Shown here one piece after another: positions 16,006-19,545 of a stretch of 27,804 nucleotides of DNA. The stretch is from an uncultured archaeon. Its GTDB lineage: Archaea; Asgardarchaeota; Lokiarchaeia; Sigyniarchaeales; SOKP01. A program made the translations under genes and the position numbers. The stretch lies in NCBI GenBank assembly GCA_964525635.1, contig CAZGJX010000051.1, forward strand, positions 1-27,804, written 5' to 3'. The stretch's first letter is position 1. The number at the start of each line of letters is the position of its first letter. The notes below the pieces were generated by a model, which was given only the letters and a program-made list of their open reading frames with translations, was not told the DNA's origin and made no database searches.

Positions 16006-16207
16006 CTTTAAATACTAAAATTATAGCTATATAATTGATGAGATTTTGTACTATTATATCTTCTTCTAATTAAAAAAAGTAACATAACATAAAAATAGAT
16101 TTTTTATTTTAGAAAACTTAATTCCGATATCATCAGATTTCTTTAATTATATGATAATCAAGAAATTGATATTAAGGTTTTTTTGCCTAATTTTAGAACT
16201 TTCTAAA

Positions 16208-16350
16208 TTATTCAAATAGGTAAATTACAGTTACTAAAAATCTGGACATTTATGGACATCCTCTTTATTGACCTGTAACTGAAGGTCCTGACAACCCATA
16301 TAGGGAATATCAATATGTGGTGGAATTTTATGATAGTTCTTCTGTCTCTT
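16208..16350 (-). ncRNA. Predicted omegaRNA (reRNA): scaffold overlapping the tnpB 3' end plus a flanking guide; 5' boundary unknown
   Basis: On the minus strand, hairpin GACCT-TCAGTTAC-AGGTC (16287-16270) has a loop CAGTTAC complementary to the terminal GTAACTG (16234-16228). The putative guide is 16227-16208. Confidence 0.65.
16228..16260 (+). repeat. IS607 right end with two 10-bp-period subterminal repeats
   Basis: CAGTTACTAAAAA-TCTGGACATT-TATGGACATC (plus strand). Confidence 0.75.
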
Positions 16351-18630
16351 CACGATATTTCTTGAAGCATTAAGGTCAGAATCCAATCGAAATCCACAAT
16401 GGGAGCATTTAAAATGGTTTCCCTCCCGTATACCAATGGTTCCACAACAAGAGCATATTTTTGATGTGTTGCGAGCAGACACCTTCTGAAACTGTATGGA
16501 ATGTAATTGACATTGAAGCTGTAGTGCTGTTTGAATTTGTGAATAAAACCAATGAGTCTGCCAGAAGGATAAATACTTCCCAGCATCTTTTTTCCGTGAA
16601 TGAGACGCCCATCTTAAATCTTCGACCTTAATTGTTGAGATATTATAGTAGGTTGCAATTGAAAGTATCGCATGACTTAGGAGGTGAACTACGTGGTAAT
16701 GGAGGCGATGGAGGCGTTCCCAACAGAGGGAAAGGGTTCTTCTGATTTTATTCCAATTTAGTTTCTTACGATAATTAGAAATATTATTTTGTAATAGGCG
16801 CTGTTCATAGTTATTTTTCTTCTTTTGGAGCGCTTTTATTTGCTCACGAAGGCGTATAAGCTTTATTTTAATATTAGAGGGGGTTCTCCCTGAAGGAGGT
16901 ATGGTAAGAGAATTAAACGTACCCTCTGTATGATTGAATTTCATATCAAAGAGCTGTTTTGTACCAAGAAAATATCGTGCGATCTCTTTATTCTGCTCTT
17001 TATTCCATATACTTAAAACCGCTAAATGCTTTAATCCTAAATCTATTCCCATCTCAAGTGCGCAATTTTGAGCAATCAGAGATGGTTTCGAACAATCTTT
17101 TTTGTGTGTTTGAAAAGGAAGGTGTAAAAGCAATTTACGGTTTTTTAACGATATTCTTGGAAGAGCAGGGATAAAGTGATTATGGAGAAGTTGCTTAATT
17201 CTCCCTTTCTCATCTTTTATTTTAAATGTCTTAAATTGATGAGCTAATAGACCTAATTTAATTAAAAAATCCTTCTTTTGTTCTTTATTTCCAAAATATT
17301 CCTTATATACATCTCGATTGATAACTGAAAGTGATAGCATTTTATGATGGGGTATTGCTATAATAGATAGTATATTTTCTTTCAACGTTTGGAGGCGGCT
17401 ATTCATTAAAGAAATAATCTGCTCAGAAATTACCTCCTCTTTTAAGAGTTCTCGAATCTTGTATTGAAGCTTAGTGGTAAAATAGGTGATAAAAGCATCA
17501 TAATGCATCCCATCTATTGGAATTTTAGGAAAATGAGGCTTAAATAACCTTCTAAGCACATATTGGTTGTGATGTTGTTTTATATCCAACAGCTCACTTT
17601 CAAAACTCTTTTGTATAAGGAGATCTATTTCAAATGATTTAACTCTCTTCTTAAGTTCTTTTTGAAATGGCTTTAAAATCAGAGCTTGCTTCTTTTTAAA
17701 TTCATGTTGTGAAGAGAATGTAGTCTCTCCAATTAAGAGTGAGAGAGAAGTACTTATTTTGTCTAAACTTAGGTGAAAAGAGGAAAGTTTAGTTTTCTTC
17801 TTTTTCTCTTGTTCCTGTTTTATTTTCTTTTTCAATGAAAGTATTTGCTGAGCTTTTCTGGTGGTTATCCATTGAAGTTGTCGTATATAGCAATCTACCA
17901 TGTAGTCCGTAAGATCAGAAGGAAGAACTGAAATTCTATTGCCTTTCTTTGTTCTATGAAAGCCAGTTGAAATTTGCCCAATCAGATCATCCGTAAGATG
18001 TAGATTTTGAACGCTTTCTCTCATTTTTGCTTGTAGGGCGTTTGAGCCGCTATACTCTGAATAGAGAGATTCCATCCCAAAATCATTGCACGAGAGAAAG
18101 AGATTCCTCACTTGTAGTATGTAATTATTGAGAAAATCATTACTTAAATCCTGTCTTTTTCCAAAACAATCATTTCTCAGTAATTTTTTTATTTCTTTTA
18201 ATGTTTCTGAGCGAAATCGCTTACCTCTAAGAAAAGAAAGAGTAAATGCTCTATCCTTCCTAATTATGTCTGTTAAATAACCAATAATTCGCTTAAGATT
18301 TTCAACTCGCTTTATCCATTCCCTTACAGATAAATAAGCATCATAAAAAGCACATTGTTTTGCTCGTTCTTTTAGCTTTAATTTCTGAAATTGAGAAGAG
18401 AGAACTTGACTAAAATTAAGACGATCATACACCGCTTGGCGAAATCTGCTTATTGATGATGATTTGTAAGAATGATATGAATTTTCTTTTATATCAGCAA
18501 TCATTAACGCTGTATACCTATTTTTCAATGCTCGTTCTTTTACAAGAAGATTGGTCATTTCTTTATAGGATTGATAAGGGCGTTTTTGAGGAAGGAGTGC
18601 AAATGTCCGAGTAATGGTTATTGCTGACAT
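16234..18630 (-). CDS. tnpB: RNA-guided endonuclease TnpB (Cas12/Fanzor-related), unusually large (798 aa)
   Basis: RuvC-I MGIDLGLKHLA (D530), RuvC-II IKVEDL (E670), Zn finger TSKICSCCG...FKCSHCG, RuvC-III DSDLNASRNI (D752). Lies downstream of IS607 tnpA. Confidence 0.9.
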   Translation of the reverse strand: MSAITITRTFALLPQKRPYQSYKEMTNLLVKERALKNRYTALMIADIKENSYHSYKSSSISRFRQAVYDRLNFSQVLSSQFQKLKLKERAKQCAFYDAYLSVREWIKRVENLKRIIGYLTDIIRKDRAFTLSFLRGKRFRSETLKEIKKLLRNDCFGKRQDLSNDFLNNYILQVRNLFLSCNDFGMESLYSEYSGSNALQAKMRESVQNLHLTDDLIGQISTGFHRTKKGNRISVLPSDLTDYMVDCYIRQLQWITTRKAQQILSLKKKIKQEQEKKKKTKLSSFHLSLDKISTSLSLLIGETTFSSQHEFKKKQALILKPFQKELKKRVKSFEIDLLIQKSFESELLDIKQHHNQYVLRRLFKPHFPKIPIDGMHYDAFITYFTTKLQYKIRELLKEEVISEQIISLMNSRLQTLKENILSIIAIPHHKMLSLSVINRDVYKEYFGNKEQKKDFLIKLGLLAHQFKTFKIKDEKGRIKQLLHNHFIPALPRISLKNRKLLLHLPFQTHKKDCSKPSLIAQNCALEMGIDLGLKHLAVLSIWNKEQNKEIARYFLGTKQLFDMKFNHTEGTFNSLTIPPSGRTPSNIKIKLIRLREQIKALQKKKNNYEQRLLQNNISNYRKKLNWNKIRRTLSLCWERLHRLHYHVVHLLSHAILSIATYYNISTIKVEDLRWASHSRKKDAGKYLSFWQTHWFYSQIQTALQLQCQLHSIQFQKVSARNTSKICSCCGTIGIREGNHFKCSHCGFRLDSDLNASRNIVKRQKNYHKIPPHIDIPYMGCQDLQLQVNKEDVHKCPDF

Positions 18631-18703: not shown

Positions 18704-19312
18704 CTAATTTTTTCCTTGTTCAGTACGTCTCATCCGGTAGAGCTTTCCGCTAAAAGAGTGAATGATTGCTACAAGATCCTCAATTAATTCGCTCTCGGGA
18801 CTTTTATCGTCTAACTTATTAATACAGAGAAGGGAGATATTAAATTCTAATAAATAACTTTTTAAATACATATATCCAAATCGAGTAAGTCTATCTTTAA
18901 AATTCAGTAATACAATTGAAAAATCATGCTTTTTACCGTCTCTGATGAGTTTCCATAATCCTTTTCTTGTTGTATTTAATCCTGAACCAATATCCTTGTA
19001 GACCTTAATGATACAAAGATGATTCACCAGAGCATAGCGCTTTAAAGCTTCAATTTGCCGATCTAAGCCCCCTCTTTTTGATTGTTTATGGCTTGAAACC
19101 CTAGCATAGATTGCACATTTTAAGTTTGGAGACTCTAATTCAATAGAAGGGGTTTTTCTATGTCTCAGTAAGAGCCTTCTTATTTCATCCATAGAAATCC
19201 TTCGATGACCTCCAAGCGTTCTCACACAGCATATCTTCTTTTTTAATTCCCATCTTCTTATTGTTTTTATACATACACCTAAAATTGAAGCAGCAATTCC
19301 AATAGAATACAT
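18704..19312 (-). CDS. tnpA: IS607-family transposase TnpA (MerR-like HTH plus serine recombinase)
   Basis: N-terminal HTH (AASILGVCIKTIRRWE..RTLGGHRR), catalytic AIYARVSS, DIGSGLN, DRLTRFG and ELIEDLVAIIHSFSGKLY. Confidence 0.94.
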   Translation of the reverse strand: MYSIGIAASILGVCIKTIRRWELKKKICCVRTLGGHRRISMDEIRRLLLRHRKTPSIELESPNLKCAIYARVSSHKQSKRGGLDRQIEALKRYALVNHLCIIKVYKDIGSGLNTTRKGLWKLIRDGKKHDFSIVLLNFKDRLTRFGYMYLKSYLLEFNISLLCINKLDDKSPESELIEDLVAIIHSFSGKLYRMRRTEQGKN

Positions 19313-19377: not shown

Positions 19378-19410
19378 AGTGTCCAGATTTGTATAGAAAA
19401 ATGACAACTA
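19378..19410 (-). repeat. IS607 left end with two 10-bp-period subterminal repeats
   Basis: Minus strand TAGTTGTCATTTT-TCTATACAAA-TCTGGACACT aligns without gaps, in inverted orientation, to the right end. Confidence 0.75.
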
Positions 19411-19545
19411 TGAATTTACACTAAAAATCAAATTTTATAAAAAAAAGACAAGTTAATTGTTATTCTTTTTTCTGAATATAAAATAAAATATTCATTCATG
19501 GAAATTAACCATATTTTAATATTCATCAATGAATTAATATTTATC

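Follow-up and report, generated by a model that had tools for sequence, protein, structure and literature searches.

The window, a 27,804-nt stretch of contig from a Lokiarchaeia genome, carries on its minus strand an insertion element in which tnpA sits upstream of tnpB in the same orientation (Table 1). TnpA matches the Pfam families Resolvase (1e-19), MerR (1.5e-7) and HTH_17 (1e-6). Because this protein is a serine recombinase with a MerR-type helix-turn-helix and a resolvase domain, the element is classed as IS607-type and not as IS200/IS605. The recombinase is the sole transposase of the element, in place of the Y1 HUH TnpA and the subterminal DNA hairpin ends that mark IS200/IS605. TnpB matches Cas12f1-like_TNB (4e-17), and its RuvC residues (D530/E670/D752) and zinc finger (C726/C729/C742/C745, CxxC..CxxC) are nearly invariant in the protein alignment (A1). 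No CRISPR-like array was found. The window holds no Rfam family at gathering score, and a search of 16100-16800 at E values up to 10 returned no relevant family and left the RAGATH-18 covariance model unmatched.

The nearest proteins and loci belong to metagenome-assembled genomes of Lokiarchaeota/Promethearchaeota, and the DNA also turns up in salt-marsh and marine-sediment metagenomes. Copies that are 98% and 79% identical occur in other assemblies, while the genome itself has one full copy and look-alikes of the right and left ends on many contigs. That the element is a mobile insertion is seen from its right ends, for which no fewer than 20 distinct flanks were counted. Three genomes from the same genus lack it and have the phosphoribosyltransferase and amidohydrolase genes side by side; its absence between the same two genes indicates that it was recently mobile.

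Table 1. Features of the element and of its predicted guide RNA. Positions are counted from the first base of the window.
Feature	Position	Strand	Description
Left junction A-G-T-G-T	19418..19422	minus	similarity among copies starts here; TGT common to the right end; predicted TAM/empty-site core
Left-end inverted-repeat copy AAATCTGGACA	19380..19390	minus	candidate TnpA site; inverted repeat I21; motif conserved in left ends of relatives
tnpA	18704..19312	minus	IS607-type serine recombinase, 202 aa; N-terminal MerR-like HTH and resolvase catalytic domain
tnpB	16234..18630	minus	TnpB/Cas12f-like nuclease, 798 aa; stop TAG at 16236-16234
Scaffold of predicted omegaRNA (reRNA)	16313-16227	minus	~87 nt constrained
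Stem-loop A	16288..16313	minus	conserved loop CTATAT; contains CCC-TATAT-GGG (16305-16295) as its tip
Stem-loop B	16270..16287	minus	stem GACCT (16287-16283)/AGGTC (16274-16270), 5 bp; loop TCAGTTAC (16282-16275)
Pseudoknot 5' strand	16281-16275	minus	CAGTTAC, within the loop of stem-loop B
Stem-loop C	16244..16261	minus	GGAUGU/AUGUCC, from two direct ATGTCCA repeats
Right-end inverted-repeat copy TGTCCAGATTT	16238..16248	minus	candidate TnpA site; conserved in most right ends
Pseudoknot 3' strand	16228..16234	minus	GTAACTG, exact reverse complement of 16281-16275; begins with the final G of the tnpB stop
Terminal T (U)	16227	minus	invariant; ends both the scaffold and the K-G-T core
Predicted guide	16207..16226	minus	5'-AAUUUACCUAUUUGAAUAAU; length of ~20 nt assumed

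The limits of the element emerge from comparison of its copies. On the left, contigs carrying other copies cease to match at 19421-19424. In independent insertions, the left junction has the form N-A-G-K-G-T, after which comes AAATTCATAG-like sequence, and the A is present in about 19 of 22 true ends; the regular expression for left ends was loose and caught unrelated sites, and only ends with CATAG and TCTGGACA context are counted in this figure. On the right, the copies of the genome agree up to ...GTAACTGT or ...GCAACGGT and diverge immediately afterwards, as do those of other genomes and metagenomes. Left ends have G-K-G-T and right ends C-K-G-T, where K is G or T and covaries: it is T where the right end reads CTGT and G where it reads CGGT, giving T/T or G/G across families. 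No target-site duplication flanks the element. In place of the canonical GG core, this sub-family has TG or GT. The K base is under three constraints at once, as it belongs to the core at either end and also to the RNA pseudoknot.

This boundary bears directly on the guide. The original prediction had a guide copied from the flank and starting at 16227, and the flanks do diverge at the end of the element, but T16227 is invariant. It is present in all 26 right ends of a MAFFT alignment (A2) and in all 33 right ends read separately, with L052/L064 taken in alignment register. In A2, information falls from 2.0 bits at this T to 0.04-0.5 bits at positions +1 to +10, so that conservation among copies drops at the predicted place. 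As similarity among independent insertions stops after T16227, the guide most likely starts one base later, at 16226. The same register follows the bacterial element ISXfa1, whose fixed right-flanking nucleotide has been demonstrated to belong to the scaffold and not to the guide (PMC10711439). The 16-mer of the predicted guide is unique in the genome.

With a covarying K-G-T common to both junctions, an empty site is expected to consist of A-G-K-G-T and then the right flank, no matter which two of the three shared bases the recombinase exchanges. For this element, the predicted empty site and target-adjacent motif (TAM) would be 5'-AGTGT followed by AATTTACC..., a prediction drawn only from the logic of the junctions. 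Published IS607 TnpBs use 5-nt TAMs (PMC10711439; PMC11061315). The right junction of the occupied site is ACTGT, one base off the predicted TAM. In the same-genus genomes, divergence of the intergenic DNA prevents alignment of the exact empty site, and no contig of four DNA runs joins both flanks across the element; the joints found belong to gene-less copies.

Inside this boundary lies a compact, structured region. A 5-bp stem with its loop, a 7-nt complement of that loop, a small CCC-TATAT-GGG hairpin and the tnpB stop had all been placed correctly on the minus strand by the original prediction. Stem-loop A has 79.3% of cells paired, compared with 42-52% in slid registers, and shows two-sided changes in 8 of its 9 pairs; on the sense strand, G-U exceeds A-C by 45 to 11. 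In most relatives its 5' strand holds the tnpB stop TGA. The stem of stem-loop B was recovered unprompted by RNAalifold. Further downstream, where the second direct ATGTCCA (16259-16253) contributes to stem-loop C, the linker that connects stem-loop B to the pseudoknot 3' strand forms a hairpin in 30 right ends (mean z = -2.8 relative to shuffles). In distant relatives the linker sequence is unrelated, yet a perfect hairpin is retained.

On this sequence alone, the pairing and the fold are not beyond chance; their significance comes from comparison. An unrestricted search for a hairpin plus partner in this sequence had no discriminating power in the AT-rich DNA, with shuffled sequence scoring as high. 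When the search was restricted by position, the score was matched in about 8% of shuffles, and the RNAfold energy of 16400-16227 (z = 0.2) is no more stable than that of shuffles. Among the right ends of A2, by comparison, the 7-bp pseudoknot CAGTTAC/GTAACTG is kept at 93.9%, with two-sided changes in 6 of 7 pairs, and the stem of hairpin B at 91.5%, with two-sided changes in 3 of 5. Both values were matched by none of 500 shuffles, a control that overstates independence because homologous right ends are related by descent. Sliding the pseudoknot partner by 1-3 columns leaves pairing at 18-38% across alignments (20-36% in A2). An independent covariance-model alignment of 35 distinct right ends (A4) gives 95.8% for the pseudoknot and 93.8% for the stem of hairpin B. 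Covariation of the pairing in homologs and the drop in conservation at the element end are the outcomes that had been named beforehand as tests of the prediction.

At least ten distinct, fully complementary versions of loop and partner exist among the relatives: CAGTTAC/GTAACTG, TAGTTAC/GTAACTA, CCGTTGC/GCAACGG, CAGTCAG/CTGACTG, CAGTACC/GGTACTG, GCGATAC/GTATCGC, CCGTTTT/AAAACGG, CCGTAT/ATACGG, CCATGT/ACATGG and CCGTAA/TTACGG. The covariance model (R1) misses the most distant relatives (L046-L050, L053, L056, L063), whose pairings were read by eye and by script. Two of these, L046 and L050, keep only 3-5 pseudoknot pairs. The layout with a pseudoknot next to the guide holds across TnpBs that are only about 30% identical. 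In L046, L047, L049 and L050 (genus g40, family f7), no tnpA was detected in the locus and the TGTCCAGA repeat is missing, while the three-hairpin and pseudoknot layout and the ...GGT end are retained.

Some details of the region stand apart from this core structure. In the sub-clade formed by L014, L015, L022, L023 and L051, one more hairpin, rich in GC (ACGCG-loop-CGCGT), is found between the coding end of TnpB and stem-loop A, ~25 nt upstream of the latter. As this hairpin is limited to one sub-clade and absent from the element described here, the 5' part of the scaffold varies between lineages. A nearly invariant run of T4-5 at 16240-16236 (A2 columns 122-125) is located 8 nt before the guide, with its first three T forming part of the inverted repeat that the left end shares. 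In archaea, oligo-T can act as a transcription terminator; in that role the run could cut off the guide, which would count against the omegaRNA reading. Another idea considered was that the TATAT loop of hairpin A is an archaeal TATA box from which a shorter RNA would be transcribed. This was rejected, as a start ~25 nt downstream would lose the pseudoknot loop, and the covarying stem around the loop likewise speaks against it.

Related sequences elsewhere in the genome include gene-less mini-elements of ~390-590 bp (C93:1721-2311, C128:4576-4967, C118:3568-3994 and C75:8685-9129; loci L037, L038, L033). All of them retain both ends and the scaffold, and since the flank differs from one to the next, so does the potential guide. 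In the mini-element on C128, the pseudoknot partner has decayed and the core has ceased to match the left end. A second IS607 family is represented by a full copy at C22:17987-21170 (L031), with a TnpB 30% identical and a TnpA paralogue 59% identical to those of this element. Its core contains GG (left AGGGT, right CGGT) and its pseudoknot reads CCGTTGY/GCAACGG. This family is multi-copy and breaks the assembly, and it is also found at many contig ends, namely of C75, C88, C126, C19, C169, C31, C122, C244, C233, C160, C114 and C98. A lone 31-nt left-end fragment (AGTGTAAATTCATAG...) at C52:1632-1800 lies between two copies of a ~55-nt direct repeat, beside a run of N, and is either an assembly artefact or the footprint of an aborted insertion.

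The anatomy, covariation, boundary and shared core of this right end make it highly probable that 16313-16227 of the minus strand is the omegaRNA (reRNA) scaffold of an IS607-type TnpB, with three hairpins, a pseudoknot, an invariant U and a guide drawn from the flank from 16226 onwards, serving to cut the empty site. The RNA would be read in the direction of tnpB and fold into hairpins A, B and C, whereupon the CAGUUAC loop of hairpin B would pair with the last seven scaffold bases, GUAACUG, and close the pseudoknot. One invariant U would follow, and then a guide copied from the DNA just outside the element. In ISDra2, the RNA is reportedly cut from the tnpB transcript, and the same is probable here; the public runs listed as containing the stretch include no RNA run. 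TnpA would excise the element and leave an empty site, at which RNA-loaded TnpB is expected to recognize AGTGT plus the flank sequence and to cut. Repair of the cut site from a sister copy would then restore the element. The occupied site would presumably be spared because its ACTGT is one base off the predicted TAM. The same DNA would also carry the TGTCCAGATTT repeats as probable TnpA sites.

An alternative accepts the omegaRNA scaffold as genuine and regards it as a relic, the giant TnpB being no longer a homing nuclease and perhaps a guide-dependent regulator or inactive. TnpB-derived repressors are known, at least as outlined in PMC13622181. The sub-family has a single full copy in the genome, some of the gene-less copies have decayed, and on C128 the partner has become GTAACTA, the loop being unchanged and the core mismatched. 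A relic would nevertheless fit poorly with a RuvC D-E-D triad and zinc finger that are intact and nearly invariant across the family, with a guide region that varies with the insertion site, with the recent mobility evident from three same-genus genomes, and with the near-identical and more divergent copies in other assemblies. Loss of the homing function is accordingly judged improbable.

The right end also carries signals at the DNA level, which raises the question of whether its symmetry belongs to DNA. The TGTCCAGATTT repeats, found inverted at 19390-19380, probably bind TnpA. They overlap hairpin C and the U-tract, and part of the layered coding originally proposed, in which scaffold and TnpA-binding sites share the same nucleotides, therefore survives for duplex IS607 sites. 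Because the transposase is a serine recombinase, any such sites would be double-stranded IS607-type repeats, not the hairpins of IS200/IS605. By extension, the covarying 7-mers could be half-sites of a DNA inverted repeat, bound on the duplex by TnpA or a host factor and changing together with the specificity of that protein. In addition to the inverted repeats, a weak match of the right-end covariance model to left ends in reverse orientation would agree with this, as would the one pseudoknot position (K) that also lies in the recombination core common to the left end. The 7-mer, however, is absent from the left end, and one half-site falls exactly in the loop of an independently covarying hairpin, an arrangement that is meaningless for a serine recombinase on duplex DNA. 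The spacing of the 7-mers varies with a linker of 20-71 nt, which nonetheless keeps its hairpin. For the three helices combined, one-sided changes are mostly G-U on the tnpB (sense) strand (58, compared with 15 A-C), an excess that argues for an RNA read in the tnpB direction instead of a duplex-DNA site. Half-sites on DNA are thus a very unlikely source of the covariation, more so than a relic, and an RNA pseudoknot accounts for it better.

The remaining question concerns the protein encoded by the same nucleotides. The TnpB family spans 694-800 aa in near-full-length matches, and open frames of 730-873 aa occur in other Asgard genomes. In the AF2 model of TnpB (pLDDT 72.6), an all-helical domain of ~400 aa (residues 18-423 of P0001) is confidently modelled and inserted between the first WED strand and the remaining WED/RuvC. 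The best Foldseek matches of the model are Cas12f, the ISFba1 TnpB (8iaz) and Fanzor2 (9b0l), and a profile search of the PDB found solved relatives only for the C-terminal RuvC/TNB part. The helical domain is present throughout the Asgard family (730-870 aa) and is without a solved relative by sequence.

The scaffold was originally predicted to overlap the coding tail of tnpB. This is so for the present element and its sub-clade (P0001-P0005 and P0019), where the frame runs through the scaffold and the tail peptide is conserved, but all other relatives stop ~85 nt before the element end, at a TGA within a conserved ATTGA, and have a tail of 10-12 aa after the RuvC-III motif. The most plausible reading of the 26 extra residues is that the frame of this element remains open through the scaffold by chance. 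Third-codon identity is 0.4-0.55 in the coding region and reaches 0.82-0.86 only from about 16306 to 16227; this jump and the upstream stops of most relatives define a constrained element of ~87 nt that is normally non-coding. As the region follows the stop codon in most relatives, protein coding cannot explain its conservation. That a functional C-terminal tail peptide (IDIPYMGCQDLQLQVNKEDVHKCPDF) is conserved and the RNA structure is its by-product is scarcely credible despite the open frame of the sub-clade, given that the same nucleotide motifs occur in over 25 relatives whose frame ends upstream, that all three codon positions are equally conserved within the scaffold (0.78-0.86) and that residues 749-798 are modelled as disordered, with pLDDT below 50.

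The predicted RNA resembles several characterized systems. The reRNA of ISXfa1 from Xylella fastidiosa is ~150 nt long and folds into three stem-loops, and its activity needs a pseudoknot that pairs an apical loop with guide-adjacent bases (Yoon et al., NAR 2023, PMC10711439). Both elements combine a serine-recombinase TnpA with TnpB, three stem-loops, a pseudoknot next to the guide and a fixed flanking base within the scaffold. ISXfa1, however, is bacterial and has a GG dinucleotide core, whereas the present element, known from its sequence alone, comes from an Asgard archaeon and has a constrained scaffold of ~87 nt, a shared TGT core and a TnpB of 798 aa. In ISFba1, the reRNA derives from RAGATH-18 and has a 187-nt scaffold with two pseudoknots, of which PK1 is essential (Ren et al., Cell Res 2024, PMC11061315; PDB 8IAZ), and a strict 5-nt TAM, AGGAG or GAGGG, is used (PMC11061315). 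Its TnpB is likewise of the IS607 type and a structural match, and its reRNA is not part of the coding sequence, a situation also seen in most relatives of this element. It differs in the size of TnpB (387 aa) and in the RAGATH-18 motif; Rfam gives neither this nor any other family here.

ISDra2 provides a comparison from the IS200/IS605 group. With the present element it shares a guide copied from the flank, an omegaRNA from the right end and a pseudoknot next to the guide, which joins guide-adjacent bases to an apical loop (as summarised in PMC10711439). It differs in its Y1 HUH transposase, its single-stranded hairpin ends and a scaffold that ends exactly at the transposon boundary. Overlap of the scaffold with the 3' end of tnpB is the rule in ISDra2, while in the family of this element it is the exception. 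Gene-less copies that keep the scaffold are already known (Altae-Tran et al. 2023, PMC10691335). The gene-less copies of this genome are comparable to the stand-alone omegaRNA mini-elements of Asgard IS607 transposons, but the scaffold described here lies in an autonomous copy with tnpA and tnpB.

The element is consequently a well-supported new example of a known system, whose biological principle has already been described. What sets it apart is a very large partner protein together with a short constrained scaffold, a TG/GT core and a coding overlap confined to its lineage. That protein has replaced RNA domains is speculation. A broader and rather doubtful proposal is that the 730-870-aa IS607 TnpBs of Asgard archaea form a separate lineage of RNA-guided nucleases, combining a REC-like helical expansion of ~400 aa with a minimal guide RNA of ~87 nt (three hairpins and one pseudoknot), a non-GG core and the TAM AGTGT.

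The analysis yields a testable design, consisting of the scaffold 16313-16227, a guide start at 16226, the candidate TAM AGTGT and the exact pairs to mutate. It also extends the layout of bacterial IS607 reRNAs, with a pseudoknot next to the guide, to Asgard archaea. If the scaffold is only ~87 nt long, the RNA and its TnpB would be a useful pair for studying how roles are traded between protein and RNA on the way from TnpB to Cas12 or Fanzor. Should the Asgard proteins indeed constitute a separate lineage, they would represent a natural takeover of RNA scaffold functions by protein outside CRISPR, in the archaeal group closest to eukaryotes.
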